Of a stretch of DNA of 61,799 nt, positions 3,027-51,589 are shown piece after piece. The first letter of the stretch is position 1. Every line of letters begins with the position of its first letter. The notes under the pieces were generated by a model. That model saw only the letters and a program-made list of their open reading frames with translations. It did not search any database and was not told the DNA's origin. The translations under genes and the position numbers were made by a program. Origin of the DNA: Dehalococcoidia bacterium. Its GTDB lineage: Bacteria > Chloroflexota > Dehalococcoidia > Tepidiformales > Tepidiformaceae. The stretch lies in contig JAHDWR010000001.1 of the NCBI GenBank assembly GCA_023382755.1, positions 1 to 61,799 of the forward strand, given 5' to 3'.

Positions 3027-5560
3027 GTGTTCGCCCCCTTCCGGCCGCGATGCTCGTTGCGCCGCTCGCTTGGCGGATCCTGTATGGCGGTCAGCTGAAG
3101 TTGGTGGGCGCCGGTGCTGGGCCGTAACGTCGTGAGCATCTCTGCGACCTGAGGCGGCACCTGTTTGCCGGTGCCGAGCGCTCGCGCGGCCAGGATCTGG
3201 TCAACCTGCCGGGCAACTTCCTCGCGCGGGCGCCCGAATCGCGCGGCCGACTCCAGGGCGATCGCCGCGATCCGCGATGGGTCGAGCGGAGCAGGCGGGT
3301 CGAGGCGCAGCGAGAAGGCCGGATGGCGGTGACCGCCGGAGGACCAGCGTGCGTAGCACTCGTAGTCGTCGAGGGAGACGAGGTCATCGACCTCGAGGTC
3401 GTGTCCGAGCTCCGGGGCCAGGTAGCGGGCATCCTCGGCACTTACCTGGAACACGGTCAGGCTGTCGAGGTTGGCGAAGATGGTCGGGCGCAGCTCGCGG
3501 TCGATCGCGTCGAGCCTGGCGAGGGACTGGGTCACGAGGACGAACGAAGCCCCGTACTTGCCGAGCTCACTCATCATGCGCGGGTAGTCGGCCCCTCCAA
3601 GCGTGCTCGATTCGTCGATCAGGGCCACCATCCGGCTGCGCTCTCCCGCCGGCAGATCGATCTGGTCTTCGACGATCAGCCCGAGGAGATTGAGGAGCGT
3701 TGCCCCGATGAGCGCCGAGCCGCCCTCGCCGAGGAGGCCGACGGCCGTGTTGACGACGAGGACGCCACCGTCGCGGAGGAGTGTGCGCGGGTTGATGGTC
3801 GACTGTGGCTGGCCGAGCGTGAGTCTGGCGGCTTCGGTGACCTCGAAGCGCCCCACCTTCGTCGTGACAGGGGTGGCGACCTGGATCTGGAAGGCGCGTC
3901 CGAGGTTGTCGTAGTTACTTCGCCACCACGACCAGAGCGTCTGGTCGGGGACCTGTGACATCACCCGTTCGCGGAAGTCCGGGCTCGTCAGCAGGGGCAC
4001 CACGTCGAGGAGCGTGTACTGCTCCTCGCGCCGTCGGACCTGGTTCGCCTGGTGAAGGCAGAGCAGCGCGGCGCGCAGGGCGCCCTCCATCCGCGGTCCC
4101 CAGTTGTCGGGCCAGAGGCGGTGGAGCATCGCTACGATGTTCTCCGCCGTCCTGTCGCGGTTGGGGAAGAGGGCGACGTCCAGGAGGTTGAGCCCAACGG
4201 GCTGCCGCCGGTCAGTGAGGTCGAGGTAGGCCGTCCGATCCTCAAGACCGGGTGGGACGACCGAGAGGACGCTCTCTGCCAGGTCCTGGTGGGGGTCGAT
4301 GACCACGAGGAGGAGGCGTTCCCGGCGTGAAGCGATCTCCTGCATGAGGTGCCCGGCGATGTGCTGGAGGAGGGTGGATTTGCCCCGCCGTGTCTTGGCG
4401 ACGAGGAGGTGGTTCCGGTAGAGCGCTCCGTGCGGCAGGTGAATGGGAACGTTCTGACCGTGGTGGCGTGACGTGCCAACTCGGCTGCCTCGGCTCGTTG
4501 CATCGCCGGCTGGGAGGAAGCGGCGTCCCCCGGGCTTCGTTGCGGCGGGCAGCCCCGATGTGAGGTCGGGAAGGTGCCAGAGCGCTGCGAGCTCGGCGGC
4601 GTTGAGCACCGGTGCGCCACGGAATGCGCCGCCTGAGGTGTCGGGTCGTAAGCCATGTTTCCTGGCCCGTCCTGGGCGGAGCCGGTTGCCGGCGGAGTGA
4701 TCGAATGCCTCGTAGGCCGCGCTTACGCGATCGCGACTGTCCTCGACGGTCTCGGCGCGGTCGCGTGGGCCGATCGCTGTCAGCTGCAGGCGCGTCGTGA
4801 ACGCGGGAAAGGCGAGCTTCTGTTCGGCAAGCGTTGCGCTCAGTGGCTCGCGGCCGCGGAGCACGCGCGACCAGACAAGAGCGCCGATCGGAAGTCCGAC
4901 GACCGCGACGGAGCCGGCAGCGAGCAGCGGAAGGTAGTCGCCGGCCTGGTACCAGTCGTAGCCCTGCATACCCGCGGCGGCCGCACCGGAGAGCGCAACG
5001 AAGGGAAGCAGGCTGGCCGCGCCGGACTCTGGACGCTCCACTGGCAGGCGCTGGCTCGACCGGCTGGCCCGCGCCTGGACGTTGGTGGCCCAACCTGGGC
5101 GGGGCGGATGTCCGACCATGACCTGCCCGACGACGCGGACATCGCCACGGGTTGCAGCCACTGCCGCCGCCAGCACGCCAGTAAGCGGGTCCCCGTGCCT
5201 GACATCCGTATCGAGGGGGAGAGCGGCCTCCCGGTCGAGATCGAGCTGGACGATCGCCGCCAGCTCATGCCCGGCGACATGAAGCGGGTCGAGATGAGGC
5301 CGGTCCTCTATCGGAACCTCGTCGAAGTCTGCTTGCGGGTAGGCCGCCCGGATCTGGCCGAGGACCGCTAATGCCGCCGCATCATCCACCGCCCGGACGT
5401 AGAACCGGAGTCCCGACTCCGTAGCCGTCCATTCCAGTGCGACATCCTGGACACCCGCCAGCCCTGCGAAGACCGTGCGTGCGCGGGAGACGGGGTCGTC
5501 GTCCCAACGCGACGGAAAGAGCTCGTAGAGGACCGTGGCTCGGTCAGGATGCCGGCGCAT
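3023..5560 (-). CDS. Type IV coupling-protein-like P-loop ATPase (TraD/TraG/VirD4-HerA superfamily) with an N-terminal membrane segment
   Basis: Walker A LLVAKTRRGKSTLLQHI. Walker B-like LLLVVIDPHQD and MVALIDESSTLGGADYPRMMSELGKYGASFVLVTQSL. Hydrophobic LLPFVALSGAAAAG...LAAGSVAVVGLPIGALVW. Start set at MRRHPDR (ATG at 5560), overlapping the primase stop; the longer track ORF to 5821 would overlap the primase by 278 nt. Confidence 0.65.
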   Translation of the reverse strand: MRRHPDRATVLYELFPSRWDDDPVSRARTVFAGLAGVQDVALEWTATESGLRFYVRAVDDAAALAVLGQIRAAYPQADFDEVPIEDRPHLDPLHVAGHELAAIVQLDLDREAALPLDTDVRHGDPLTGVLAAAVAATRGDVRVVGQVMVGHPPRPGWATNVQARASRSSQRLPVERPESGAASLLPFVALSGAAAAGMQGYDWYQAGDYLPLLAAGSVAVVGLPIGALVWSRVLRGREPLSATLAEQKLAFPAFTTRLQLTAIGPRDRAETVEDSRDRVSAAYEAFDHSAGNRLRPGRARKHGLRPDTSGGAFRGAPVLNAAELAALWHLPDLTSGLPAATKPGGRRFLPAGDATSRGSRVGTSRHHGQNVPIHLPHGALYRNHLLVAKTRRGKSTLLQHIAGHLMQEIASRRERLLLVVIDPHQDLAESVLSVVPPGLEDRTAYLDLTDRRQPVGLNLLDVALFPNRDRTAENIVAMLHRLWPDNWGPRMEGALRAALLCLHQANQVRRREEQYTLLDVVPLLTSPDFRERVMSQVPDQTLWSWWRSNYDNLGRAFQIQVATPVTTKVGRFEVTEAARLTLGQPQSTINPRTLLRDGGVLVVNTAVGLLGEGGSALIGATLLNLLGLIVEDQIDLPAGERSRMVALIDESSTLGGADYPRMMSELGKYGASFVLVTQSLARLDAIDRELRPTIFANLDSLTVFQVSAEDARYLAPELGHDLEVDDLVSLDDYECYARWSSGGHRHPAFSLRLDPPAPLDPSRIAAIALESAARFGRPREEVARQVDQILAARALGTGKQVPPQVAEMLTTLRPSTGAHQLQLTAIQDPPSERRNEHRGRKGANT

Positions 5561-6599
5561 GCTGGACCTCCTTCCCAGCGGGCCCCAGTTCGGCGACCAG
5601 CCTGAAGAACGTCTCGCGGCCGTCGGCGCTTGCGCCAAGCTCGCCGAGGTCTTTGACGCCGTCGGGGAGACGTAGAAGGCGGGCGCGGGCGCCGAGGGAG
5701 TCAGCCAGCTCGCGAGCGGCATGCTGCCCTTCGTCGTCGTTGTCGAAGACGAGCACGACTTCTGGCACGCGGTCCAGGAAGCGCAGCCGCTCGGCCCGGG
5801 CATGCGTCCCGAGCAGGGCACAGATGGGCAGGTTCCAGCTCACGCCGGTGAGATAGTCGAATGCGCCCTCGGTCACGAAGACGCGGCTCTGTCCGCGGAC
5901 GCGCTCATAGCCGAGGATGGGCTTCGGCAATGAGAGGCCGAGGTACTTCAGCCGGCGCTCGTTGAGCGCACGGCCGACCATCCAGGCGCACTCGCCCCCG
6001 CGCAGCTCAGGAATGACCACGCGCCCGGCGAGTGCCTCGTTGCCATCCTTCCGAAGCAGTCCCATCTCTGCGGCTCGCCGAAGGCTGAAACGGTGGCGGC
6101 GCAGGAAGGGCTTGAGCGCCTGCCCGTCGCTGTAGCCGAGACGGCACTCCCTGACGACCGGCATCCCGATGCCCCGGCTATCGAGGTAGCGCAGTGCCCG
6201 CTCGTTGCGACGGAGCGCCTCGTGGTAGAGGTCACAGGCCGCCGCCAGGATGAGACGGTCATCGACCGTCAGGGGAGATTCGGACGGGGCCGGCCCACGC
6301 TTGTCATCGCTCGTGGCGACGCCTTGCGGGGCCGCTTCACCCAGCAGCTCCAGGGCGCGCCGGAAGCCGACGTTCTCCTTGCGTCTCACAAAGTCGATAA
6401 CATCCCCCGAGGCCTTGCAGCCGAAGCAGAAGAAGCTCCGGGTGTTCGGGTAGACAACCAGGCTCGGGTGTTGCTCGTCGTGGAACGGGCAGCAGCCGAC
6501 GAATCGCTCGCCGCGTTGCTGGAGCTTCACGCCGTGGGAGGCGATGACCTGCTCGATGGGGTTGTGCTGCTTGACCAGCTCGACATCAACGGACGGCAT
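5544..6599 (-). CDS. DNA primase, CHC2 zinc finger plus Toprim domain (DnaG-like)
   Basis: GCCPFHDEQHPSLVVYPNTRSFFCFGCKASGDVIDFV is a CHC2 zinc finger. VFVTEGAFDYL and VVLVFDNDDEGQHAA are the Toprim E and DxD motifs. Start MPSVDVEL at 6599. Confidence 0.85.
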   Translation of the reverse strand: MPSVDVELVKQHNPIEQVIASHGVKLQQRGERFVGCCPFHDEQHPSLVVYPNTRSFFCFGCKASGDVIDFVRRKENVGFRRALELLGEAAPQGVATSDDKRGPAPSESPLTVDDRLILAAACDLYHEALRRNERALRYLDSRGIGMPVVRECRLGYSDGQALKPFLRRHRFSLRRAAEMGLLRKDGNEALAGRVVIPELRGGECAWMVGRALNERRLKYLGLSLPKPILGYERVRGQSRVFVTEGAFDYLTGVSWNLPICALLGTHARAERLRFLDRVPEVVLVFDNDDEGQHAARELADSLGARARLLRLPDGVKDLGELGASADGRETFFRLVAELGPAGKEVQHAPAS

Positions 6600-8406
6600 C
6601 ACTCGCCTCCTCGCTGTCCCGGGCAACCAATTCCGCCGGGTCTGTCGTCGCTAGCTCGTGCTCGAACGGGCTCGCCTCGATGCGCAGCGCGAGATGGTTC
6701 CCCGAGGCGAAGAACAGCCCCTCCCCCTTGCGGCAGGACAGCAGGAACTCCCGCTCCCCGGCGCTGAGCCGGAACGTGCTGGTGACGGCGTCGATCGTTG
6801 AGCTGTCCTGCCGCATCAGGAGCTGGACGGACGAGTTGGCGAGGACCGTGTGACCCTCGGCGGTCGCGAGGAAATCCTCCACGTCCTGCGTCACCGTCGT
6901 TAGCCCGAGGTAGTGCTTGCGCGCCTGCCGGGCCATCGATGCCAGGAAACGGGCGCCCTCCTCGTGCTGGATCAACGACCACGCTTCGTCGATTAGCAGC
7001 ATCCGCGGTTTGCGGCTACGGCGGACCTCGCGCCAGATGTGGTCGGCGATCAGGTAGACACCGAGGGGACGCAGGTCCGGCTCGAGGTCGCGGATGTTGA
7101 AGACGACGAAGGGCCGTTCGAGGTCGACTGAGGTCGGCGAGGAGAAGACGTTGCCGAGGCTTCCCTCGACGAAACGTTCGAGCCGGTCGGCCAGGCCGAG
7201 CGGGTCGTCGCCCTCGCGCAGGACGTCGTAGAGGTCTCTCAGCACGGGCGGCGGCTTGCCGTGCGTGGAGGGGTCGCGGGTGATCCCCGCGCGGCCGTAG
7301 GTCTCGAGGAGTGCCCGGTCGAGTGCGCCGCGCTCACGCTGGCCGAGGCTGCCCCCCCGGTCGGCGAGCATCAGGCCAAGGAGGCCCTGGAGGGCGAGGA
7401 GCCGTTCGGTCAGCGCATCGCGTGTTTCCCCGTCGCGCTCGGCACCGTGGGCAAGGTCGAAGGGGTTGATGTGGTGCGCCGAGCTTCCGGAGAGGCGGAT
7501 GTACTGCCCGCCAACGGCGTCGCAGATCCGACGGTACTCGTCTTCGGGGTCGATGATGTAGTACTCGACGCCGCGCATCAGCGCCCGGAGCGCTTCGACC
7601 TTGCAGGCGTACGACTTGCCCGCACCGCTCTTGGCGAAGACCACCTTGTTTGCGTTCTCCAGCTCCCGGCTGAATGGGTCGAAGATGACGAGTGAGTTGT
7701 TGTGGACGCTGATGCCATAGAGGATCCCGGCCTGCATCGAAAGGTGGCTCGACGTGAACGGGATCATCGTCGCCGCGCTGGTCGTGTCGAGGTTGCGGTA
7801 GCGCCCGAGGTAATCGCGGCCTGCCGGCAGGCAGGAGAGGAAGCCGGGCAGCATCTCGAACAGTGCGGCCCGCGAGGAAGCCATCATGCCGCCGAGCGCG
7901 CTCTCCACGCGGCGATGCAGGTCGTCCACGCCGGAGGTCGAGCCCGAGCGAAGACACACGTAAAGGCTAACGGAGAAGACGCGCTCCTCGCCCCGCTGGA
8001 GCGCATCCCGCAGACGTTCCACGTCCTCGTAGGCGACCTCGCGCTCGGCGCTAGCGATCTTGCCGCTGCGCGCATCGAGCAGGCGCGACGACTGAAGCTC
8101 CACCAGCTTGTGGGTGAGCCTGCGCACGGTCGTGGCGGAGTCGAGCGGGTCGACATGGATGCTCAGGTCCAGCGGCTCGTCGAAGTCGATCAGACGGGCC
8201 AGCCAGTTGGGATGGACGTAGCGCGGATAGTCGCTGAGCCCGAGCACGCGCACATAGCGGCCGTCGATGACGAGGTGCGAGCGGGAGGCCTCAATGGCAG
8301 CCGGGGCCAGGTGGTCGATGGCGGAGCGGGTGCCGAGCTCGAAACGGAGGTCGTCTGCCGACGGCTGGTGTCGGCGCGTACGGTGACGCAGTGGAAGGCT
8401 AGCCAT
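6586..8406 (-). CDS. VirB4/TrbE-type conjugation ATPase, ATPase portion only
   Basis: Walker A VVFAKSGAGKSYACK. Walker B MLLIDEAWSLIQHEEGARFLASMARQARKHYLGLTTVTQDVEDF. The upstream part GRYVRVLGLSDYPRYVHPNWLARLIDFDEPLDLSIHVDPL is typical of Gram-positive VirB4. Start MASLPLRH (ATG at 8406). Confidence 0.8.
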   Translation of the reverse strand: MASLPLRHRTRRHQPSADDLRFELGTRSAIDHLAPAAIEASRSHLVIDGRYVRVLGLSDYPRYVHPNWLARLIDFDEPLDLSIHVDPLDSATTVRRLTHKLVELQSSRLLDARSGKIASAEREVAYEDVERLRDALQRGEERVFSVSLYVCLRSGSTSGVDDLHRRVESALGGMMASSRAALFEMLPGFLSCLPAGRDYLGRYRNLDTTSAATMIPFTSSHLSMQAGILYGISVHNNSLVIFDPFSRELENANKVVFAKSGAGKSYACKVEALRALMRGVEYYIIDPEDEYRRICDAVGGQYIRLSGSSAHHINPFDLAHGAERDGETRDALTERLLALQGLLGLMLADRGGSLGQRERGALDRALLETYGRAGITRDPSTHGKPPPVLRDLYDVLREGDDPLGLADRLERFVEGSLGNVFSSPTSVDLERPFVVFNIRDLEPDLRPLGVYLIADHIWREVRRSRKPRMLLIDEAWSLIQHEEGARFLASMARQARKHYLGLTTVTQDVEDFLATAEGHTVLANSSVQLLMRQDSSTIDAVTSTFRLSAGEREFLLSCRKGEGLFFASGNHLALRIEASPFEHELATTDPAELVARDSEEASDAVR

Positions 8407-9085
8407 GCTGCTCAACCTCCTTCCAGAATCGGGTGACCACCGGCCTCGCTCCAGCACTGAGCGACGGCGCCACCTGGGAGACCTGCGAGCAGAGGCAGGC
8501 CGCCCACAGCTCCGCGAGCGCTTCGCTCCGCAGCCGCTGCGAGCTGACACCGAATGAGGTCAGTCCCTGCGCTATCTCGTGGCAACGCGCATCGAGCTGG
8601 GCGGCCGCGACGGCGAGCTGCTGCTCGTCCCGCCCGCGCGTGGCGCGCTGCCACGGCCAGCGGATCGCGACATGGCCTTCACCCTCGGTGTGCCCCGACG
8701 GCACGACGAGGTAGAAGCGCCGCTCGAGCAAGGTCCGTTCCCGGGCCAATCTCCGTACAAACATCTCGTGCTCGAGGGCGAGGCGGCGGATGGCCTCGCT
8801 GTTGGCGTGGGAGGTGACGTTGGTGCGGAATCCCGCGAGGTAGGGCTCGACGTTGGTCGGAAGGATGCGGACGAGCATCTGGACCGGATGGCTGAGGGAG
8901 TTGAGGAAGGAACGGTAGGCGGCCATCACCGCCTCCTGCTCCTCCTCGGACTTGAGCGCGAAGTTGACGCTCTGGGCCTGGATGACCGCCCGGTAGTCGC
9001 CGCCCCGGAGACAGAGCACACCCTCGACGATCTCTTCCAGCGGCAGCATCTCCTGGACGCTTCCGTGCTTGCCGTTGGTCGTCAT
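8399..9085 (-). CDS. VirB4 N-terminal-domain-like protein encoded as a separate ORF
   Basis: LPLEEIVEGVLCLRGGDYRAVIQAQSVNFALKSEEEQEAVMAAYRSFLNSLSHPVQMLV resembles the N-terminus of Tn916 Orf16/TcpF/PrgJ-class VirB4 proteins. It overlaps the ATPase ORF by 8 nt. Confidence 0.6.
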   Translation of the reverse strand: MTTNGKHGSVQEMLPLEEIVEGVLCLRGGDYRAVIQAQSVNFALKSEEEQEAVMAAYRSFLNSLSHPVQMLVRILPTNVEPYLAGFRTNVTSHANSEAIRRLALEHEMFVRRLARERTLLERRFYLVVPSGHTEGEGHVAIRWPWQRATRGRDEQQLAVAAAQLDARCHEIAQGLTSFGVSSQRLRSEALAELWAACLCSQVSQVAPSLSAGARPVVTRFWKEVEQHG

Positions 9086-9471
9086 CGCAACGTGCTCCCG
9101 CCCCGGGGGTCGAGTTCGTCCCGATCAGGCAGCAGGACCTCGAAACGCGCCTCCTCATCGACGGCCACCTCACGTGACGTGCGGACGCGCCAGACGACGA
9201 CGCGCGGGATGCTGACGTAGCGCAGGAGGACGAACGCCCAGTCCTCCAGCGAGCGGCCGGCCGGCTGCCAGAGCGAGATCGCGGCGGTCATCAACAGGAC
9301 CGTCGCCCCGGCCGCGAGACGGATGGCGAGCGGCAGAGGCGCCTCGCTCATGGCGGAGTACGCCAGGGCCAGGCCGATGATGGCTACCATCAGCTGGCGC
9401 ATCGTCAGCCCGGCAAAGGCCTTGTCCTCGATGTTGAGGTGTGTGGGGACTTCGTGGCGTTGCACGGGCAT
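9082..9471 (-). CDS. PrgI-family (VirB3-like) small membrane protein
   Basis: MPVQRHEVPTHLNIEDKAFAGLTMRQLMVAIIGLALAYSAM... followed by a second hydrophobic helix. Start ATG at 9471 preceded by GAGGAG; the track ORF to 9717 has an Arg-rich, implausible extension. Confidence 0.7.
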   Translation of the reverse strand: MPVQRHEVPTHLNIEDKAFAGLTMRQLMVAIIGLALAYSAMSEAPLPLAIRLAAGATVLLMTAAISLWQPAGRSLEDWAFVLLRYVSIPRVVVWRVRTSREVAVDEEARFEVLLPDRDELDPRGGSTLR

Positions 9472-9508
9472 CTCCTCATCGGTGTTTGAGGAAAGCGTGC
9501 TGGTCGCC

Positions 9509-9579
9509 GTTCCATGGGCGTTCCAGGATCGGGGCCGAGGCGTTCCAACTTCGGCCCTTCTGTTCGAAATCCGCTCCAA
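9509..9579 (-). promoter_or_regulatory. Array A: five phased heptamers (GTTCCAA family on the + strand, TTGGAAC in the sense of the downstream minus-strand operon)
   Basis: GTTCCAT 9509, GTTCCAG 9520, GTTCCAA 9542, GTTCGAA 9562, GCTCCAA 9573. Offsets are 11/22/20/11. The proximal copy is 38 nt from the prgI-like ATG. Spacer sequences are unrelated. Confidence 0.7.
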
Positions 9580-10131
9580 TTGCTGCCAGGTCAGGGCGTT
9601 TCCGCATCTGTGTCGCGGAGGAATACCGCCCTCCACCAGGACCCGCCCGGTCCGTGGCTTATGGCGATCGAGGGAGACGACGGCACGGTTGCGATAGACG
9701 AGCCGGCCTGGCGGCATGCGGGTCGGGCCGCCGAGGAGCGCGGTGCAAAAGGGACGAACTCCTGTGAGCCGTAGACTCTGCTTATGAACCCCATCGCAGG
9801 ATCAATTGCTAGCGCAACCGCCTCCTTCGCCGGCAAGAAGGTGTCTGACTACCCGAGTTGCGGCCCGCCCTCGCGGCGGCCGATTTCCGAGCCACCTATG
9901 ATGGGTGGTCTTCGCGGCGCCTCGTGCCCCGCGCACTCTCGCGAGCGAGTCGACCGGAGCTTCACATTCGGAAGCACCGCCCGCGCTGCGTCGCCTTTTA
10001 ATGGACAGGAGACGGGTGAGGGGTGACTAACGCACGAGCGCCTGGGGCCAGGCCAACGTGGCAAGCTGAGCAGCGACGGTAATTCATCGGCGGTCTATGC
10101 TCCGCTCCCGAAGAGCACGGCCAACGTTCGT

Positions 10132-11928
10132 ATGTATCTATCACGAATTGAGATTCAGGGCTTCCGAGCCAGTGGCGAGGGGCCGATCACTTGCGAGTTC
10201 CCCGGCCGCTTCGCGGTGCTTGTCGGCGCGAACAACGCCGGGAAGACGACGGTGTGCGACGCGATTTACCTCGCCCATGTGCAGGGATTTCCCCGGTTGC
10301 CACGCCAAAGTGCCGACCTTCTCTCGGATCCCCCGAGGCTCATACAACTACAGTTCGAATTTGGTGGAGGTGGCACCGAAGGACCCCTCGGACAAGCGCT
10401 GCAGGCTGAGGCCCAAGCGGCTCCAAGGTGGTCGCGCAGGTTGGAGCGTTCCCTTGGCGGGGTCCGGGCAGCTGCCATTGAGAACGCCCTTCACGAGGCA
10501 GACACCCGTGTGTTGTACCTGCCTGCTCAGCGAGATCCCGTTGACGAGCTTGCACGGCGGGAGGCGGTTCTGCTCGTTGAACTGTTGCGCGCGGAGCAGG
10601 AGCGACAGCGTGGCCACCGCAACCTTGCCGATTTGCGGGGCCTGACGGAGCGGCTGCTCGCAGGGATGATCGATCACCACCTGATCCAGTCGGTGGAGCG
10701 CCGAGTGACCGACTACCTCAAGGCGCTCACCGGCGGCGTCAGTGCGCACCACGCCTTTATTGGGACGCAACACGTCAATGACGCGTTTCTTGCGCGGGTG
10801 CTCGAATTCCTCCTGGCTGCGCTCGATGAGAGGGCTCTAGCGCAGCGGCTCGAATTGTCCGGGCTCGGGTACGCGAACCTCCTTCACCTCGCCATCACGC
10901 TCTCGGCGATCCCCGGAGGGCGGGCCGTGCCCGCACCGCTGCCGGGTCCCGCCCCCGTGCCTCAAGACGACCAGGCTCGCGACCCAGGCGTGGTGGCGGA
11001 CGACCTAATGCAAGAGGCGCAGCAAGAGGCCGCCGCAGTGGAAGATGCATTCTTCCCGGAGAGGTTTCACGCGACGGTCGTGATTGAGGAACCTGAGGCC
11101 CATCTGCATCCGCAGCTGCAACACGGCTTAATGCGCTACTTGCGACGAATCGCAGCCGACCGGCCGGAGTTGCAGCTAATCATCAGCACGCATTCGGGCG
11201 AGATGATCGCGGCCTGTGCACCCAGCGAACTTGTCGTTCTCCGTCGGGCTCCTGACGGGCGCGTGGCCCGAGCGCTCGGTGCAATTCCCATCGAACCAGC
11301 CAGACGCGCGGGAGTCCTGCGAATGGCCGCGCTACATCTGGACGCCTCGCGCAACTCGTCGCTGTTTGCTTCAAGGCTCGTGCTCGTGGAGGGGGTCAGC
11401 GACTTGCTGGTGTTGCGCTTGTTAGGGCGTGCATGGGCCGAAGCCGACGAGCACAAGCGGCAGTTCGTCGATGCTCTGACAATCATCCCGTTGGGCAGCC
11501 GTGTCGGCCGCTGGGCGGTAGATCTGGTTGCCACGCCGGGCTACGAGCTAGTCGACCGGATTGCCGTGTTGAGAGACACCGACCAGAGGGACGGCGAGGC
11601 TCCTGCCGTTCCCGCTTGGCTCGATCAATTCGACGAAGCCACTGTCAGGTGTTTCCTCAATCACCCGACGCTGGAACCGGCAATCACGGCGGGCAACGAG
11701 GACGTGGTTAGAACGGCGCTGGACGCTGTGGGACTGCCGCTGGACGGCGCCGTGACGCCCGCAACGATCGATGCCCTCTTCACCGGGGCTGCGCGACGCC
11801 GAAAGGGTGAGTTTGCTTACGCTTTGGCAATGGGCCTGGAGGATGCGATTCAGGAGCAGCGATGGCCTTTAGTACCCCAGCACATGAGTGAGCTGTTCGC
11901 TTTCCTGTTCGACGAAGAAGGCCGTTAG
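10132..11928 (+). CDS. gajA: Gabija GajA-like OLD-family ATPase with Toprim nuclease
   Basis: [12 protein letters not shown]..., Walker [27 protein letters not shown], Toprim [16 protein letters not shown] and [11 protein letters not shown]. Size 598 aa, directly followed by a UvrD-like gene. Confidence 0.8.
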
Positions 11929-11940
11929 GCTGGAACGAGC

Positions 11941-13428
11941 ATGTCATCGTTCACGCTCACGCAGGAACAGATAAGCGCAGCGACAAACGAGGCGCGGTAT
12001 GGATTCATCGAGGCTTCGCCCGGCTCCGGCAAGACGACCGTCGCGGCACACCGGTTCGGCGTCATGCGATTCTCCGGACGTGCGACTGAACGCTCAGCCA
12101 CCGCGATTAGCTTCACTCGGTCGGCCACCGCGGAGCTAGCGCTGAAGGTCACTAACCGGTGGGGGCGGGGGGCGACAGCTTGGCCCAGCCGCGTAACCAC
12201 GATCGACGGGCTGATCTTGGAGCTGATCCAGCACTTGCTCCGCAAGCGCGTGATCAGGTGGCCGTCAGACCATGTCGAGCTGCGGGTCCTGGATGAGTGG
12301 CGAGGGCACGCCGGTTATCGTTGGCTTGCCGCCGGGAGCTTCCATCGAGTCGCCACGATCAACGCCGATGGGGAAGTGACGTCTATCGGCCGTCGGGTTG
12401 GGCAGCCTGGGCTCGGCATCGGTAACGCGGCCCAATTCGAGGCCCTGCTCGAGAAGGGCCTATGTACGCACGGGGATCTGCGAGACGTGCTCGCAGCAGC
12501 GTTGCGCCGGCCGGAGATAGTCGAGGCTGCGAGCGGATTTCTCGCAGCCGCTCGGCACCTCGTGGTCGATGAGGTGTTCGATGCCAATGAGCTCGATCTT
12601 CAGTTGGTCGAGATCGCAGCCGCGATCGGAGCAGGCGTGACGCTCATTGGCGATCCTTGGCAGGCGCTCTACGGCTTCCGCGGTGCCAGGCCTGATCTAG
12701 TGGGTGAGGTTCTTGACCGCCTCGGCTTCAGAACGCTCCCTTTGACTCAGTCGTTTCGGTTCAAGACGGAGAAAATGCGGGCCCTCTCTTCGGCGCTTCG
12801 CACTGGGGCGGGCGTGGGGCTGGATTCGATCGACAGCTACGATGTTGTCTTGGCGCACAGGTGGCAGGAACTCTGGAACGGCCCGGCCGGGACGCTGCCA
12901 CTTTCGTTCGGAGCGATCCGCAATCAAACAGACGCGGCCACGATCATCCTGCTCGATCAGCTGACCTGGGCAACCTTCGGGCGGCGCGCGATATTCCTGA
13001 ACGAGGCGCTCATTCTACTCGGTCTTGACCTACCACTCTACACTCGAGAGGGAGGGCGAGCATTGGCCGCCGTGATGGAGGCTCTTCCGCGCGGGGATGA
13101 GGATGCCGCTCGACGAACCTTGAACCAACTTCGAGACGCGATACGGAGTCTCGGAGTGCGGCGACCTCGGGCGCTGGCCGCGGACGCGGAGGAAGAGCAG
13201 GCGGATCGACTCCGCATGCTCGCCGCTCGTTCAAGATGGGACGGTCGCCTTGTTCCGGGTCTGACGATTCACCAGGCCAAGGGGCGCGAATGGGACAACG
13301 TTGGGCTCCTCTTACCTGCAACGGACCTTGTTCGTTTGGGCGAGGGTCTAAATGAAGCAGAGGAAGCCGCTAGGACGCTGTACGTGGCGCTGACACGTGC
13401 ACGATTCGACGTCGGGCTTGTGGCGTGA
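11941..13428 (+). CDS. gajB: Gabija GajB-like UvrD-family helicase
   Basis: IEASPGSGKTTVAAHRF (Walker A), LVVDEVFDAN, LIGDPWQALYGFRGA, TIHQAKGREWDNV, LYVALTRAR. Size 495 aa. Confidence 0.8.
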   Translation: MSSFTLTQEQISAATNEARYGFIEASPGSGKTTVAAHRFGVMRFSGRATERSATAISFTRSATAELALKVTNRWGRGATAWPSRVTTIDGLILELIQHLLRKRVIRWPSDHVELRVLDEWRGHAGYRWLAAGSFHRVATINADGEVTSIGRRVGQPGLGIGNAAQFEALLEKGLCTHGDLRDVLAAALRRPEIVEAASGFLAAARHLVVDEVFDANELDLQLVEIAAAIGAGVTLIGDPWQALYGFRGARPDLVGEVLDRLGFRTLPLTQSFRFKTEKMRALSSALRTGAGVGLDSIDSYDVVLAHRWQELWNGPAGTLPLSFGAIRNQTDAATIILLDQLTWATFGRRAIFLNEALILLGLDLPLYTREGGRALAAVMEALPRGDEDAARRTLNQLRDAIRSLGVRRPRALAADAEEEQADRLRMLAARSRWDGRLVPGLTIHQAKGREWDNVGLLLPATDLVRLGEGLNEAEEAARTLYVALTRARFDVGLVA

Positions 13429-13529
13429 GCCCAGAGGCCGGGCTGCCGGGCACGCCTTGCGCCGCATGATCGGCGTTGAACAAACGTCAGCATGTCGTTG
13501 GGGCTCCCGAAGTCCGTGGCGACGGGTCG

Positions 13530-13612
13530 TTGGAACGAAACGAGAGCGAAATTGGAACAGACACCCCCCAGATTGGAATAGCCCCCTCCGAATCCTGGAA
13601 CGCTGAAGGAAC
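13530..13612 (+). promoter_or_regulatory. Array C: five phased heptamers (TTGGAAC family, sense orientation) upstream of the T4SS mating-channel operon
   Basis: TTGGAAC 13530, TTGGAAC 13552, TTGGAAT 13573, CTGGAAC 13595, AAGGAAC 13606. Offsets are 22/21/22/11. The array ends 51 nt before the ATG at 13663. Confidence 0.7.
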
Positions 13613-13662
13613 GCCAATTCGCAGTCTGACTCATCACGGCCTCCTGGCCGCTGGAGTCAGAT

Positions 13663-14895
13663 ATGCGCATCTTCGCCCTCACCGTACTTGCACTGGGATT
13701 GGCCGGCGCACTGGTGGTTGGAGCAGCCTCCGCCAGCGCGCAGGAGGCCGACGACACGCTGGACGAGCTGTCGTCGGCCGGCATCCCTCTCCTCAACAGC
13801 CCGCCTGCGCCAACCCCGCAACAGGTCCCGCCCGGCCAGCCTGGCCCGGAAGGTCAGCCGCCGCCGGATACGCTGGTCGACCTCCCGATCCCCGACCCGA
13901 CGGACTTGATCCCCAACCCCCTGGACTGGCTGCCCGGCAGCCTCAACCCCGTGAACTGGGCGAAGGACATCGTCAACGCGGTGTTCACGCTCATCGGCCA
14001 GGCGATGCTGGAGGCGATCCGCGGGTTCGTCGACTGGGCGCTGGGCATGGGAGGCTCATCGCTCAACTTCGTCACGCGCACCCCTGCCGAAGGCACCTAC
14101 GATAGCCCGACCGTCCGCAGCCTCTACGACTTCTCCCGCGCCATCGTGAACGCCGCGCTTGCGGTCGTCGTCATGTGGGGCGGCTTCAACGTCATCATTA
14201 AGGAGCACACCAGGTCGCCCTACCACGAGGCGATGGAGCTGCTTCCGCGCGTCATCCTCGCAGCGCTCGCCGCCAACCTGACGCTCGAGTTCGCGCGGAT
14301 GCTGATCGACATCAACAACGCCCTCGCCGCCGGCGTTGGCGACGTCGGCCTCCCCGGGTACGACCAGGCCACACCCTCGCAGGAGGGCCTGGCACTCATC
14401 TTCACCGCCGTCGCCTACGGCATCGTGGCGATCCTCCTGGTCTTCCAGATGCTGATGCGCCTCGCCCTGCTGGCGATGCTCATCGTCCTTGGGCCAATTG
14501 CCGCGCTGCTCTGGGTGCTGCCACAGACCCAGCAGTGGACGCGCTGGTGGACCGACCTCTTCGTGATCACCGTCTTCCAGCAGACAGTCCAGGTCATGGT
14601 CCTGGCGCTCGGCACTGCGCTGATGGTCGAGCTGACCCCCGGCAGTGTCTCCAACGCCCTTCTGACGATGCTGCTCGGTCTGGCGGTTTGCTGGCTGACC
14701 CTCAAGGTCCCCTCGCTCCTGCGCTCGGCCCGCAGCCAGGCCGGCATCACCAACGTCCTCACCTTCGCGATGGCCACCCACGCGCTTGGCGCGATGGCGG
14801 GAGCGGGTCGCGCTAGCGCTGCGGCGGGCGGCGCCGGGGCCGCTGGTGCCGGTGGTGGCGGGGCTGCTCCGCGGCCAGCAGCGGGAAGGGCCTAG
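13663..14895 (+). CDS. VirB6/TrbL-like polytopic membrane protein with a signal peptide, a Pro-rich segment and a Gly/Ala-rich tail
   Basis: Signal peptide MRIFALTVLALGLAGALVVGAASASA, then at least 6 hydrophobic helices (for example ALIFTAVAYGIVAILLVFQMLMRLALLAMLIVLGPIAALLWVL). Position next to the hydrolase and pilin genes. Confidence 0.6.
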   Translation: MRIFALTVLALGLAGALVVGAASASAQEADDTLDELSSAGIPLLNSPPAPTPQQVPPGQPGPEGQPPPDTLVDLPIPDPTDLIPNPLDWLPGSLNPVNWAKDIVNAVFTLIGQAMLEAIRGFVDWALGMGGSSLNFVTRTPAEGTYDSPTVRSLYDFSRAIVNAALAVVVMWGGFNVIIKEHTRSPYHEAMELLPRVILAALAANLTLEFARMLIDINNALAAGVGDVGLPGYDQATPSQEGLALIFTAVAYGIVAILLVFQMLMRLALLAMLIVLGPIAALLWVLPQTQQWTRWWTDLFVITVFQQTVQVMVLALGTALMVELTPGSVSNALLTMLLGLAVCWLTLKVPSLLRSARSQAGITNVLTFAMATHALGAMAGAGRASAAAGGAGAAGAGGGGAAPRPAAGRA

Positions 14896-14904
14896 GAGGA
14901 CGCC

Positions 14905-15840
14905 GTGAACACGAACCCACCCACCGGCGACATCTTCGGCAGCGTCGGTAGCGAGGGACTCAAAGTCGCGGGCGTTATCGGCGTCGTCATGCTCGCACCG
15001 ATGCTCTTCGTCATGTCCGCGCTTGGCGGCACTCCGGGCATCGCCCAGTCTCCAGCTTCCGCCGCGGCCCTCGCCGAGATTCCCGCCGACCACCTGGCCG
15101 TGATGCAACAGGTGGCTGCTGCGACGGGCATCCCCTGGCAGGTGCTCGCCGCCATCGCCAAGGTCGAATCGGGCTTCGGCGCGAACATGGGCCCGAGCTC
15201 GGCCGGCGCCCTTGGCTACTGCCAGTTCATGCCCGCGACCTGGGCCTACTACGGAGTCGACGGCGACCGCGACGGCGTGGCCGACCCCTTCAACTACCAC
15301 GACTGCCTACCCGCCGCTGCGCAGCTCCTGCTCGGCAGCGGAGCGCCCGGTGACCTCCGGCGTGCGCTCTACGCGTACAACCACTCCTGGTCCTACGTGG
15401 ACCACATCCTCAGCATCGCCACCAGTTACGGCTACCTCGACCGGGCGGGCATCCCAGCGCAGGCGGTCGCCCTGGCGCGATCCCGGCTCGGGTTGCCCTA
15501 CGTGTGGGGCGCGGCGGGGCCGGAGAGCTTCGACTGTAGCGGGCTCACCCAGTGGATCTACGCCCAGCTCGGCATCCCCCTGCCGCGCACGTCGCAAGCA
15601 CAGTTCAACGTGACGATGCCCGTCGCGCTGGAGTTCCTCCAGCCGGGCGACCTCCTCTTCTACGAGAACACCTACCCCTCCCACGAACGCATCACCCACG
15701 TCGGCATCTACGCCGGAAACGGCGTCGTGATCATGGCCACACAGCCCGGCGAGTTCGTGAAAGAGGTGTCGCTGGACAACGACTACTGGAGTCGCCACTT
15801 CGCCGGCGCCGCCCGCCCCGTGAAAGGACCGCAGGCATGA
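14905..15840 (+). CDS. Bifunctional cell-wall hydrolase: lytic transglycosylase (SLT) plus NlpC/P60 endopeptidase (VirB1/TcpG/PrgK analogue)
   Basis: SLT block LAAIAKVESGFGANMGPSSAGALGYCQFMPATW. NlpC/P60 block GLPYVWGAAGPESFDCSGLTQWIY...ITHVGIYAGNGVVI. GTG start at 14905 preceded by AGGAGGA. Confidence 0.85.
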   Translation: MNTNPPTGDIFGSVGSEGLKVAGVIGVVMLAPMLFVMSALGGTPGIAQSPASAAALAEIPADHLAVMQQVAAATGIPWQVLAAIAKVESGFGANMGPSSAGALGYCQFMPATWAYYGVDGDRDGVADPFNYHDCLPAAAQLLLGSGAPGDLRRALYAYNHSWSYVDHILSIATSYGYLDRAGIPAQAVALARSRLGLPYVWGAAGPESFDCSGLTQWIYAQLGIPLPRTSQAQFNVTMPVALEFLQPGDLLFYENTYPSHERITHVGIYAGNGVVIMATQPGEFVKEVSLDNDYWSRHFAGAARPVKGPQA

Positions 15841-16355
15841 GCGGCGGACGTGGCGTGATGGTCATCCTCGGCGGGCTCGCCGCCACCCTGCTGGTGATCG
15901 CCATCGTGAGTGGCTGGCAGGGCGCGAACCGTCTGCGTGGCCAGGGCGAGGATATGGGCGAGGTGGAAGAAGCGGCCCGGCTCTTCGTCGAGGCCTACGG
16001 GACCTTCGACTTTCGCGAGCCGGCTGCTTACCGCGAGCGTCTGCTGAGCCTCACCACCGGCGACGTACACGACGCGGTCGCCGCCTCACAGGTCGATCCC
16101 AACGCTCTCGGCCAGCAGCAGACCATGGTGACCGGAACGGTCACGATCCAGGTCACGGCCTACTCGGACACCGAGGCGACCGTGTCAGCGACCACCGAAC
16201 AGACCCGCCGCGCCGTCGACGCCACAACCGGTCAGCTGCGTGAGCAGCGGCTCCGCCAGCACGTGACCTGCCGGCTGCTTCGCATCGACGGCCGCTGGCT
16301 CGTGGCCGAGTTCCGGCTGCGGTCGGAAGAACCCCTTGAGAACACCGGCAGATAG
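15837..16355 (+). CDS. Membrane-anchored protein with a single N-terminal TM and a putative NTF2-like domain; possible VirB8 analogue
   Basis: MSGGRGVMVILGGLAATLLVIAIVSGW, then a soluble domain ending ...LLRIDGRWLVAEFRL. The ATG at 15837 overlaps the hydrolase stop (ATGA). The fold assignment is inference only. Confidence 0.45.
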   Translation: MSGGRGVMVILGGLAATLLVIAIVSGWQGANRLRGQGEDMGEVEEAARLFVEAYGTFDFREPAAYRERLLSLTTGDVHDAVAASQVDPNALGQQQTMVTGTVTIQVTAYSDTEATVSATTEQTRRAVDATTGQLREQRLRQHVTCRLLRIDGRWLVAEFRLRSEEPLENTGR

Positions 16356-16364
16356 GAGGCCGAC

Positions 16365-16601
16365 GTGATGGAACAGATCAACACCCTCTTTGAGAACCTG
16401 CTCAACATTGGCATGGGCGTCGGCGCCGCCGTGGCCGCGTTCTTCGTGATGTGGGGCGCATTCCTGTACATGAGCGCTGCCGGCAGCCCTCACCAGATGG
16501 AGCGCGGTAAGTCGGCGATCGTCAACGCCCTGGTCGGATTCTCCATCGTCCTGATGGCGAGGGTGATTGCGGGGATGATCCAGGATTCGATCGGGGCGTA
16601 G
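16365..16601 (+). CDS. TrbC/VirB2-like T4SS pilin
   Basis: 78 aa with two hydrophobic helices separated by a short polar loop: GMGVGAAVAAFFVMWGAFLYMSAAGSPHQMERGKSAIVNALVGFSIVLMARVIAGMI. AGGAGG lies upstream. Confidence 0.7.
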   Translation: MMEQINTLFENLLNIGMGVGAAVAAFFVMWGAFLYMSAAGSPHQMERGKSAIVNALVGFSIVLMARVIAGMIQDSIGA

Positions 16602-16980
16602 ATGTCCCGCCGGTGACCGAAACCGCTGGCAGGGTTGAGTGTAGAATGTCGGCTCGGTCATTCGCTGTCTGCGGCTCGAATCGAGCGTTGCCTCCCGACA
16701 TCGGAGTGCGTGCAAGGCTGGGTCATGAGGGGCGAACCGGAGCGAAGCTGAGACCGCCCCAGCTCTCGGGGTTGGCGGTACGCCCGCATCGAACCGTCAC
16801 TGAGACCGTGATTGGCCAAGCGGGCGCTATGAGCAAAGGATCGAGCGGGCTGGAGCACCGGCAGGAGATTCCATGGCCGGCCACTGCCTCGCCTACGAAT
16901 CTTCCCCAGCTCGCGCGCCAAGACTATCCAGTCTGGACCGGCGGGGTCGGAGACTACACACCCGGAGTCAACAATTCGAG

Positions 16981-20014: not shown

Positions 20015-23000
20015 TCAGGCGTCTTCCGCCAGCGGGCAGATGAAGTAGTGTGGGCAGCGCGGGCAGACGCGCTCGCTGGGTTGTGGCGCGTAGTCCCCGA
20101 GCAGGATGCCGACGATGGCGGCATCATAGTGGGCCATACGTGTCTCGATTGTCTTCGGCTTCAACTCGACCGGCTCGACCTGGTCGGTGGAAAGGAAGCG
20201 CACTTGGACTCGCCGCGGGACGCGCGGCGGCGTCTCGCGCGCAGCGACGACGTAGAGCGCGTAGATTTCCTTATCCAGCTCGCTCTTCGTGAGCCGACCG
20301 GTGCGCAGGCGCTCGACGAGCTCGGACCCGTCTTCCAGCGCCTCAACGTGGTCGGGCGTGAATCCGACTCGTCCGTGGCGCAACTGCACCTCCCACTCGG
20401 GCCGCGCCGCAGGGCCGTAGGAGTGAAGCGGGCGCCGTGCGGCGCGCTGTACCATCGCTTCCGCCGAACGGCGGTACAGCATCTCGTAGGGGTGATCGAG
20501 CGGGCCCTGCGCCTCCCACGTCTCAGCCAGCTGCGCCAGTGCCGCCGCCTCGTCAACTGGGCGACCTGCCTCGCGCTCGTCCGACATCCATCGGAGCACC
20601 TGGTAGACGCAAACATGGAACTGCAGGTAAGCCGAATCCTCGCGCTTGGCGCTCAGGCCGAGGACGTACTCGTAGAAGAATTGGCGCGGACAGCGCATGT
20701 ATAGCTCGACTGCCTGGACGGGCCAGGCGACGGGGGACGGCGGTGGGTCGGGCACCGGCACCGGCGTCGGGGCGTTCGACGGCCATATCACCGGACCATC
20801 GGGGTGGGTGGGCAGCAGGTGGCTGATGGCCATGACCAAGCTGGACGGTCCCCTGTTTTGGTTGCCGTACCGCCGGGCGCGGGAGAGGCACAGCACGTCG
20901 CGGGCGCGCGAGAGCGCCACGAAGAACAGGCACTCTTCCTCCTCGTCGTGGTCGTCACCGGACGCCGCTAGCATGCCCGTCGGTGCGGGGCAAGGGCGAG
21001 CCTGGCGCCGTGACGGGAAGATGCCCTGCCCGAGGGCCGGCAGGTAAACGGCGCGAAACTCCAAGCCTTTGCTGGCGTGTACGGTGAGCAGGCGCACCGC
21101 GTCCAACCCGTCGGCCCAGCCGGGCACCTGGCGCAGCTGCTTCTCTTCGCCGAAGATCTCCAGCCGGCGCACGTAGTGGAGCAGACGCCTCTTCGGCTCG
21201 CGCGGCTCGCCCGGCACAGCGGGGCGCTGTTCGTGCACGAACTGAAGGAGCTGGTACAGCGCCAGGAGGCGCTGCCGTCCCACCACCGAGCCGTCGGCCA
21301 GCGCCGCGCGTAGGTAGTCGCCGCGATCGAACAGGTACCGCGACAACAGCGTCCAGGGCCGGCTGCCGTAGCAGAGCCCGTCAACGTGCCGCGCCAGGAG
21401 CGCGATTCCCTCCTTGCCACGCGGCGAGATGCTGTCGGCGTCCTGGGCAAGTTCGAGCGCACGCGGAAACGGGACGCCGCCATCGCCAGCAAGCTTCAGC
21501 AGAACGCGCACGTCGGACAGCGGGATCTGGTACTGGGGAAAGCGGGCGACTCGCACGAGGCCCCGCCCGTCCGGCTCGCAGGTCAAAGCCACAAGCGCAA
21601 GCATGTCGCGGACCTCGGGCCGCTCGAAGAGGTCGCCGAGGTAAAGGACTGGGACCCCGTTGCGCTCGAGTTGCTCCGCGATCTTTCCAAGGTAGGCATG
21701 CGAGCGACAAAGGATAGCCTGCGCGCCGTAGGCGATGCCGGCCGCTCGCTGGTGCTCAATTTCCCGCGCCAGGCCGTCTCCCTCCCCGTAGAGGTCGTCG
21801 GCCACCTGCATCAGCACACGACTGGCCCCGTCAGGGCGTGCGGGTTCCCACGGCGTGAAGGCGGCGCCGCGCGCGGCGCGCATGCCGGGCGCCATCCCCG
21901 CGAAGACGCGGAGGATCGCCGGTTGCGAGCGATAGTTCCGCCCCAGCGCCATGACCTTGGCGCCCGGGAAATCCTCGGCGAAGAGACGCATGTTGACCGG
22001 CGCTGCGCCGCGGAAGCGATAGATGGCCTGCCGCGCGTCGCCTACTACCCACAGGCCCGCCCCAGCGCCGGCGATCTCGCGCAGCAGCAGCCCGCTCGCG
22101 CGGTTGACATCCTGGTACTCGTCGACCAACACGTGGCGATGGGTCCGGCGGACCGCGTCCCGCACGTCGGTGTGCGTCCGCAGCAGTGTGACTGCCTTGA
22201 AAATCAAATCGCCAAAGTCGAGCAGGTGCTCACGGTCGAGCAGCGCTTGGTAGGCCGTGTAAACGCGGGCCACCTCGAGTGCCTTGTCCGCCGCCTCGAC
22301 CTTCGCCGCGTCGGCTGCCTCGTCTCGCATCTGCTGCGCGATCGCGTTGTACTCGGCGGGGCCTACGAGCTCGTCCTTCGCGCGCGAGATGGCGGCCATA
22401 ATGTCGCGCAGGTAAAGGGTCGGCTCATACAGGTTCTGGTAATGGTCGAGTTCCAGCTCGGGCAGGAGGCCCTCGAGCAGGGCCACCGCGTCGGCGGGGT
22501 CTAGCACGTCGGGGCGGGCCGGCAGCCCCAGGTGCGTGCCGTACTTGCGGAGCAGTTCCAGCCCAAAGGCATGAAAGGTGCCCATCCAGATGTGCGGGGC
22601 CGCCGATGGATCGGCGAGGGCGACACGCGTCCGCATTTCCTCGGCGGCACGGTTCGAAAAAGTCAACGCCAGAATCGCAGAGGGCGGCACGACCTGCTGG
22701 AGCAGGAACACGACGCGGCCGACGAGCGTGCGCGTCTTGCCCGTCCCCGGCCCGGCCTCGAGCAGCAGCGGGCCGCGGCGGGCGTGGGCCGCTGCCACCT
22801 GGCTCGGATCCAGCTCGAGCGTCTCCTCCGCAGGCGCGTTGACCGACTCGACGATCTCCGGCGTCAGCAGCGCACGCGCCAGCTGCTGCAGCACCATGCC
22901 CGCTGGCAGCCCGACGCGGGCGGCGATGCCGCTCGCACCCAGCCCTTCCGTTTCGTACCACACGCGCAGCGCGTCGGTCGGCAGCAGGAATTCGCGGGCG

Positions 23001-23410: not shown

Positions 23411-23433
23411 TCGCTCTATTATCCGTGCGCCGC

Positions 23434-50109: not shown

Positions 50110-50114
50110 GCCTC

Positions 50115-51561: not shown

Positions 51562-51589
51562 GAGGTTCTCCTTTCTGCGTGGCCTCGTC

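Follow-up and report, generated by a model that had tools for sequence, protein, structure and literature searches.

Phased heptamer arrays at three operon starts of a Chloroflexota conjugative element, with an element-encoded SARP-domain protein as the candidate binder

A 61,799-nucleotide stretch of DNA from a Dehalococcoidia bacterium (GenBank assembly GCA_023382755.1, contig JAHDWR010000001.1, positions 1 to 61,799; hereafter the window) carries the genes of a conjugative element, and just ahead of one of its transfer operons lies a set of short direct repeats, array C (13530-13612, plus strand). The question raised by this locus is what these repeats do and which protein reads them. An original prediction, made by inspection of the sequence, placed five related heptamers at 13530, 13552, 13573, 13595 and 13606, pointing toward a virB6-like gene at 13663, and regarded them as one half of a bidirectional control region whose other half, array A, lies some 4 kb away on the far side of a Gabija defence system. 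The analysis reported here shows that array C is a genuine conserved promoter-operator array of a Chloroflexota conjugative element. At a rough probability of 0.68, we propose that it is the operator of an activator-dependent promoter and that it would be bound by the element's own SARP-module protein.

The heptamers and their offsets of 22/21/22/11 bp could be read directly in the sequence as claimed. The five clear units are TTGGAAC (13530-13536 and 13552-13558), TTGGAAT (13573-13579), CTGGAAC (13595-13601) and AAGGAAC (13606-13612). A sixth, degenerate unit, CGAGAGC (13541-13547), became visible on aligning relatives, in which it is kept as GGGAGC or GAGAGC; counting it, the offsets are 11/11/21/22/11. 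All units have the same orientation and are spaced by one or two helical turns, which places them on one face of the DNA. Exact copies of TTGGAAC number 11 in the window against 3.4 expected, a count reached in none of 100 shuffles. When heptamer chains were defined by at most one mismatch per unit and a spacing of 10-12 or 20-23 bp, three chains of at least four heptamers (lengths 4, 5 and 5) were found in the window; among 300 composition-matched first-order Markov simulations the longest chain had three heptamers, which occurred once, and none reached four. Between the end of the array and the ATG at 13663 lie 50 bp, and the gene starting at this ATG (13663-14895, plus strand) is indeed a TrbL/VirB6 homologue (PF19597, E 3e-14).

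A scan of a genome collection for TrbL homologues gave 49 loci. In the close relatives among them (L001-L005, L007, L009 and L015), array C is found at the same place, with array A 3.2-4.6 kb upstream. Within array C, the heptamer columns are conserved at 0.91 in 10 close relatives, compared with 0.78 for the spacers. Backbone homology starts at the first heptamer of array C, the sequence further upstream being unrelated, and ends at approximately 16600. Taken over approximately 40 related elements, the arrays are conserved and always stand at operon starts.

The same heptamer family makes up array A (9509-9579, minus strand), which reads TTGGAGC at 9579, TTCGAAC at 9568, TTGGAAC at 9548, CTGGAAC at 9526 and ATGGAAC at 9515. 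The earlier placement of arrays A and C at operon starts stands, as does the direction of array C toward the trbL/virB6 operon, but a third member of the same regulon had been missed. Array B (53425-53495, minus strand) consists of five exact copies of TTGGAAC (53495, 53484, 53464, 53442 and 53431), is continued upstream by degenerate TTGGAGC/TCGGAAC units to approximately 53579, and sits in the 157-bp gap between tadA and tadB. Arrays A and B have the offset pattern 11/20/22/11 in common, from which array C differs, and the 16 units of the three arrays give the 8-mer consensus TTGGAACG. Each array precedes a backbone operon: prgI-virB4 for array A, trbL/virB6 for array C and tadB for array B, with start codons 36-50 bp downstream.

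In arrays A, B and C alike, a hexamer of the form CAnnnT stands exactly 9 bp (8 bp if measured from the 8-mer) past the proximal pair of heptamers, which are themselves 11 bp apart. The original prediction, although sound in its reading of the arrays, had overlooked this -10-like element, which is predicted from sequence as CAGTCT for array C (13622-13627, plus strand), CACGCT for array A (9499-9494, minus strand) and CAGGAT for array B (53415-53410, minus strand). The combination of an 11-bp heptamer pair with NANNNT 9 bp downstream occurs at only three sites in the 61.8-kb window, and these are the three arrays. Across loci, NANNNT was present at the expected offset in 45 of 60 array ends, involving 21 distinct hexamers, against a background of 0.028; the offset was 9 in 31 cases and 20, with a degenerate unit intervening, in the other 14. 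A consensus promoter scan of positions 9300-13800 found no sigma-70-like -35/-10 pair, and neither an Rfam nor a tRNA scan of the whole window gave any match. The trbL transcript is predicted to start near 13634. Assuming a start approximately 7 nt past each hexamer, leaders of 15-29 nt would result, each with a good Shine-Dalgarno sequence, which for trbL is the GGAG at 13653-13656 (plus strand), 6 nt ahead of the ATG.

Two other kinds of site have to be weighed against this layout. GGAAC is a common -35 core of promoters recognised by extracytoplasmic function (ECF) sigma factors, and the heptamers could be read as -35 elements for an alternative sigma factor, perhaps the product of a 313-aa open reading frame (ORF; 24078-25019, minus strand) that gives a faint sigma-70 region 4 / ECF match (E 0.0096 and 0.0079). 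This ORF lies in variable cargo rather than in the backbone, no CGT-type ECF -10 is found 16-17 bp past any GGAAC, the GGAAC core becomes GGACT, GGACC or GGAGA in relatives, and a sigma factor cannot account for five to six phased copies, so this explanation is scarcely credible. Phased direct repeats are also typical of iterons and parC sites, and among the element's products are a protein of the ParA/MinD family (54858-56096) and a relaxase whose N-terminus carries a winged helix-turn-helix (wHTH), either of which would suit iterons, centromere-like sites or relaxosome accessory sites at an oriT. That the arrays serve such a purpose is very improbable, however: each of the three faces a gene, with the -10-like hexamer at a fixed 9 bp and the start codon at the distance given above; no rep or parB gene lies near them; the ParA-like gene is the canonical tadZ of the Tad locus; and arrays reappear in promoter-like fashion where cargo interrupts an operon.

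The register of the arrays resembles that of promoters controlled by SARP proteins. In these, direct repeats 11 or 22 bp apart overlie the -35 region, and 8 bp separate the 3' repeat from the -10 (PMC10936776), and the sites have been described as heptamers with 4-15-nt spacers overlapping the -35 (PMC10972967). AfsR binds as a side-by-side dimer to two 11-bp units (-40 to -19), contacts the first 8 bp of each, and replaces the contact between sigma region 4 and the -35 (PMC10936776). The window arrays likewise have heptamers in a single orientation, 11/20-22-bp spacing, a 3' repeat approximately 8 bp from the predicted -10, and a poor or absent -35.

A likely binder, not recognised in the original prediction, is encoded within the element. 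The last gene of the array-B operon specifies a 1014-aa LysM/SARP protein (45618-48662, minus strand) that has a BTAD match (PF03704, E 1e-8). Its C-terminal 254 aa (residues 761-1014; 45621-46382, minus strand), beginning FRARLFGTFRVE...KARELLAYLL, are predicted to fold as a SARP module, that is, an OmpR-type wHTH followed by a BTA domain. An AlphaFold2 (AF2) model of the module has a pLDDT of 92.5, and its best matches in the PDB by Foldseek were AfsR (8k60_I, E 9e-10, TM-score 0.74) and EmbR (2fez, TM-score 0.74). The AfsR matches came from two transcription-initiation complexes, and the remaining matches were generic TPR proteins with TM-scores of at most 0.4. Homologues that are 48-67% identical carry both Trans_reg_C (PF00486) and BTAD (PF03704) and are named SARP regulators by JGI, and the family profile matches AfsR (E 3e-6) and EmbR over the whole wHTH and BTAD. 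Helix alpha3 of the module, PLPNAAYYVRRTLSRA, was aligned by HMMER with AfsR residues 84-99, a span covering the residues R87-K95 that contact bases and phosphates.

The rest of the protein is unusual for a SARP. Hydrophobic segments lie at residues ~17-40, 70-100 and 325-345, and a LysM domain at residues 190-245 is followed by a Pro-rich linker. The last hydrophobic segment, a predicted transmembrane (TM) helix at ~325-345, is followed by RRARRR, suggesting that the LysM domain is extracytoplasmic and the C-terminal half cytoplasmic. No fold is claimed for residues 346-762, where the AF2 model, built from a 7-sequence alignment, has a pLDDT of 38. The SARP module is thus C-terminal and not at the N-terminus of a soluble protein, and its setting is not that of an actinobacterial activator of secondary metabolism, as its relatives come from Chloroflexota metagenome-assembled genomes (MAGs) and its neighbours are type IV secretion system (T4SS) and Tad genes. 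Full-text literature searches returned nothing linking SARP or BTAD regulators to conjugative elements, Tad loci or Chloroflexi, and we could not find a published description of the LysM plus C-terminal SARP architecture.

Every lineage examined keeps the SARP gene in synteny with the arrays, and the gene itself belongs to an operon under array control. In 21 metagenome loci, the 500 bp past its stop codon mostly run straight into cargo or into a tRNA-like end, and no arrays were gained from this stretch. A sequence resembling a tRNA 3' end (GGTTCGAATCC...) directly follows the SARP stop in L081 (~2135-2230), L086 (~3833-3920) and L088 (~640-700), and may be the attachment site of the element in these genomes.

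The nature of this protein also bears on whether the arrays switch transfer genes on or off. Conjugative elements mostly keep their transfer genes off by default, and five or six phased sites over ~85 bp could seed a repressive oligomer, so that a protein filament laid over the promoter would silence the operon. Such a role is quite improbable, since the promoters have no recognisable -35 and the proximal sites lie in the -35/spacer register of SARP activators, and the SARP/BTAD proteins characterised so far are activators.

Further evidence on the binder came from the variation of the heptamer between lineages. Arrays of the same geometry, with the 11/20-22 spacing kept throughout, were found with other heptamers upstream of trbL and tadB homologues; only arrays with a TGGA core were retained from this search, as a generic finder of periodic heptamers gave many false positives in GC-rich coding sequence. 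The window clade has TTGGAAC, L010 has TAGGAAC or TGGGAAC, and TTGGACT is found in L021, L024, L042, L063, L077-L082 and L089. Other types are TTGGAGA or TTGGAG (L018, L065, L067), GTTGACT (L023), CCGGAAC (L029, L034-L036), TTGGACC (L032, L039), TGGGAGC (L037, L041) and TTAGAAA (L044, ~980-1060). OZ253555.1, a complete Dehalococcoidia chromosome, holds six copies of the element (L029, L034, L035, L036, L039 and L040) with at least three heptamer types (CCGGAAC, TTGGACC and T/GTGGAAC), and CCGGAAC in L029 and TTGGACC in L039 each stand beside their own SARP allele. Because several heptamer types coexist in one chromosome, a shared host factor is unlikely, and an element-encoded, co-evolving binder is indicated. 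In the same chromosome the SARP gene of L036 is seemingly frameshifted, and L039 has two truncated SARP copies.

Heptamer differences appear to track changes in the SARP recognition helix, although the rule is incomplete. In two clades, distinguished as NAAYY and NAV, the residue preceding the invariant Asn of helix alpha3 follows heptamer position 6. Within NAAYY, P goes with GGAAC (the window, L053-L060 and L010), S or N with GGACT (L077, L089 and L021) and Y with GGAGA (L065 and L067). Within NAV, A goes with GGAAC (L025 and L029), S with GGACC or GGACT (L039 and L027) and G with GGAGC (L041). After the rule had been set, the tadA-tadB gaps of five loci with an S allele were checked (L063, L078, L079/80, L082 and L089), and all had TTGGACT.

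The strongest competing account of the binder is that a different direct-repeat protein, such as a host or element response regulator of the OmpR/PhoB type, reads the heptamers and that the SARP protein acts elsewhere, for example on the Tad pilus only. Pho-box-type sites share the 7+4 bp, 11-bp periodic layout over the -35. AfsR and PhoP share a site at afsS (PMC10972967), the annotation covers only part of the element's small ORFs, and the helix covariation is imperfect. We nevertheless regard this account as unlikely. A shared host factor would hardly account for the different heptamer types of elements that reside together in one genome; the annotated backbone genes were found to include neither a receiver-domain regulator nor a further wHTH regulator; and the SARP gene has the synteny with the arrays described above.

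Several observations weigh against control of the arrays by the SARP-module protein. In the window protein itself, Pfam detects BTAD only and not Trans_reg_C, and a single-sequence PDB search with the module returned TPR designs only; because both searches missed it, the wHTH assignment comes from the family profile and the predicted fold. The module is tethered behind TM segments, unlike that of any characterised SARP, which leaves its access to DNA unexplained. The covariation is not a clean code, with only about 5-6 independent switches. The helices of L025 and L029 are almost the same, yet heptamer positions 1-2 are TT in L025 and CC in L029, and L044, with the Y allele, has TTAGAAA. L021 has ATTGGTG/ATGGGTG before tadB (1494-1581) but TTGGACT before trbL (9629-9668), two specificities that a single regulator does not explain. 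One inter-unit spacing is 20 bp and not 22 bp. When metatranscriptome and metagenome contigs were aligned to positions 8800-16800, X9 was the only RNA run containing the region, and its contigs cover it at a depth of ~3-18, a contig-level result that lacks 5' ends and may include DNA.

If the element's SARP-module protein is indeed the binder, its wHTH and BTA domain would bind the phased heptamers, with two protomers on the proximal pair of array C (13595 and 13606; roughly -39 to -22) taking the place of the absent -35 contact, as with AfsR. This pair would bring RNA polymerase to CAGTCT, the weak -10, and the three or four upstream units would allow cooperative loading. A single protein acting at arrays A, B and C would turn on the whole transfer machinery, including the channel, the DNA-processing genes and the pilus. 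With its gene at the end of the array-B operon, the activator would also raise its own expression, a positive feedback that would make the circuit self-reinforcing; read-through from cpaB-tadZ-tadA could supply a basal level. A cell-wall or contact cue may gate activity, as the LysM ectodomain and the membrane anchor suggest.

A wider reading of these data is more tentative, and on balance doubtful in its entirety. Under it, the lineages would carry orthogonal, membrane-anchored LysM-SARP one-component regulators, each reading its own heptamer by means of early recognition-helix residues, so that co-resident elements would be insulated from one another. Conjugation and pilus genes would be turned on by an extracellular cell-wall or contact signal, and the arrays would be portable promoter cassettes tolerating the insertion of defence islands. 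The recognition residues that would be assigned under it, with no greater assurance, are P/A for GGAAC, S for GGACT/GGACC and Y/G for GGAG.

The DNA between arrays A and C was compared among relatives. As had been stated, the two arrays are mirror-oriented with Gabija in the 4 kb between them (10132-13428, plus strand), gajA occupying 10132-11928 (E 2e-49) and gajB 11941-13428 (E 9e-35). In close relatives, DNA homology to the window is interrupted from q9580-9600 to q13514-13544, and these two limits correspond to the distal unit of each array. Gabija is missing from L006 and L010, in which the gap holds no cargo, and the two arrays stand back to back in one divergent intergenic region of 420-460 bp (array A at 9612-9694 and array C at 9868-9950 in L006; array A at 9536-9606 and array C at ~9862-9949 in L010). 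This adjacency, found in two of the related elements lacking Gabija, supports the proposal of a bidirectional control region split by cargo.

Other genes occupy the place of Gabija in L002 (SIR2 and HerA, 6281-9852), L004 (a 965-aa UvrD-like protein, 6652-9867), L005 (a PHP-AAA protein and Abi_C, 5517-9857) and L007 (a nucleotidyltransferase and a membrane protein, 5823-9798). The gap between arrays A and C (window 9600-13528) is thus a recurrent landing site for anti-phage systems.

What had not been noted before is that the divergent layout is itself derived. In more distant elements (L021, L025, L029, L033-L042 and L044), the Tad-SARP, trbL and prgI modules are colinear on one strand, and an array of the same geometry still stands ahead of trbL. 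It follows from this colinear order that the divergent layout arose when the 3.1-kb trbL module of a colinear ancestor was inverted. Extra arrays are found where cargo breaks the backbone, at 16024-16063 in L021, ahead of the displaced hydrolase gene, and at 13519-13589 in L042, ahead of prgI. The array apparently moves about as a promoter cassette.

The window was annotated using Pfam, NCBIfam and PADLOC. The array C operon (13663-16355, plus strand) continues after the TrbL/VirB6-like gene with an NlpC/P60+SLT cell-wall hydrolase (14905-15840, plus strand) and an Rv0361-like membrane protein, whose ORF spans 15552-16355 (plus strand) and whose real start is probably near 15840. The array A operon (1257-9465, minus strand) carries T4SS and DNA-processing genes: PrgI-like (9465-9082, with a true GTG start at 9465), TrsD-like (9085-8399), VirB4-like ATPase (8550-6586), primase (6626-5544), coupling protein (5821-3023) and Replic_Relax relaxase (3026-1257, the protein with the N-terminal wHTH), all on the minus strand. 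With VirB4, coupling protein, relaxase, PrgI/VirB3-like, TrbL/VirB6-like and cell-wall hydrolase genes all present by Pfam and NCBIfam, the element is classified from its gene content as an MPF-FA(TA)-type conjugative element of monoderm bacteria. No integrase, att site or tRNA gene was found within the window.

The array B operon (45618-53388, minus strand) contains tadB, tadC, flp (51561-51385, minus strand), three TadE-like genes, a lipoprotein gene, a gene for a PKD protein and the SARP-domain gene, all adjacent or overlapping. The order of the Tad-like locus is cpaB, tadZ, tadA, the array B gap, then tadB, tadC, flp and the tadE-like genes, so that array B splits the locus into two transcription units. 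No TTGGAAC array is present upstream of cpaB. A direct repeat, GTGAGACCG, does occur there twice, 42 bp apart (57040-57110, minus strand), and may be a control site of another kind, acting on the first half of the locus.

All TrbL relatives came from Chloroflexota MAGs (Dehalococcoidia, Thermoflexaceae and Anaerolineae), and for this reason the possibility of an actinobacterial element, which the GC content of 65-70% had suggested, was dropped. The sequencing runs that contain its sequence are wastewater and bioreactor metagenomes.

A second cargo island (window 16600-45617), absent from L010, follows the array C operon. It includes a UvrD/PD-(D/E)XK/M78 fusion (20015-23467), glycosyltransferases (25488-28579) and an Hma system made up of HmaC (28707-32075, with an N-terminal HEPN domain), HmaB (32080-35760, with an N-terminal NADAR domain) and HmaA (40998-44576), together with PRTase-CE (35661-36695), a TmtA-like protein (36805-41001) and PD-Lambda-3_B (44811-45614). 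By BLASTN, window positions 25175-25374 match inside the hmaC-homologous stretch of L006, L015 and L043, the counterpart in the window lying at ~29040-29240, which suggests that this segment is a short duplicated hmaC-like fragment.

Chloroflexota abound in wastewater reactors, in sediments and in soils, and how conjugation is regulated in this phylum is essentially undescribed. If the proposal made here is correct, three look-alike promoters place a mating channel, DNA-processing genes and a Tad-like pilus under the control of one SARP-type activator. The SARP mechanism would then extend beyond Actinobacteria and antibiotic clusters, and to a new architecture, a membrane-tethered protein that has LysM in its ectodomain and ends in a SARP module. 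Heptamers that differ by lineage, together with the matching helix changes, would form a natural set of orthogonal activator/operator pairs from which a specificity rule could be drawn. The divergent-promoter gap, as a landing site for Gabija, SIR2-HerA and other anti-phage systems, helps to find defence islands in uncultured bacteria.

Among known systems, several share part of this arrangement. SetCD of SXT/R391, BisDC of ICEclc and activators of the TraR type are, like the protein proposed here, element-encoded activators of several transfer operons, and master activators of conjugative elements often act with positive feedback. They differ from the window system in both protein family and operator, as none is a SARP and none has phased heptamer arrays. 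The pho boxes of PhoB/PhoP, like the arrays, are tandem head-to-tail 11-bp direct-repeat units with 7 conserved bases lying over the -35. Unlike those systems, the element has no detected receiver-domain response regulator or kinase, and the candidate protein carries a BTAD. ToxR, TcpP and CadC are likewise one-component, membrane-anchored regulators with an OmpR-type winged helix that acts at promoters, and ToxR recognises heptad repeats arranged in tandem ahead of ctxAB. The domain order of the window protein is the reverse of that in ToxR, which has a cytoplasmic wHTH at its N-terminus and one TM segment. The window protein further differs by its BTA domain, its several TM segments, its LysM ectodomain and its cytoplasmic linker of ~400 aa; weak matches indicate no sequence relation beyond the wHTH fold.

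The closest likeness is to the SARP promoters of Streptomyces (the afs box of AfsR at afsS, and the targets of ActII-ORF4, DnrI and PimR). These have the same heptameric direct repeats of 7-8 bp, which lie on one face of the helix at intervals of 11 or 22 bp, with the 3' repeat approximately 8 bp from a weak -10 and the -35 overlapped or replaced, and their binder has the same combination of OmpR-type wHTH and BTA domain as the window SARP module. The operator architecture itself is therefore of an already known kind. The arrays differ from the Streptomyces sites in having five or six units over ~85 bp, where the latter have 2-3. The host is a member of the Chloroflexota and not of the Actinobacteria, the genes behind the promoters serve conjugation and a Tad-like pilus in place of antibiotic synthesis, heptamer specificity diversifies between lineages, and the SARP module forms the C-terminus of a LysM protein anchored in the membrane. 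What is new here is thus the phylum, the T4SS and Tad-like targets, the five-to-six-unit 11/20/22/11 layout, and a candidate regulator whose architecture and diversified specificities set it apart from the Streptomyces SARPs.

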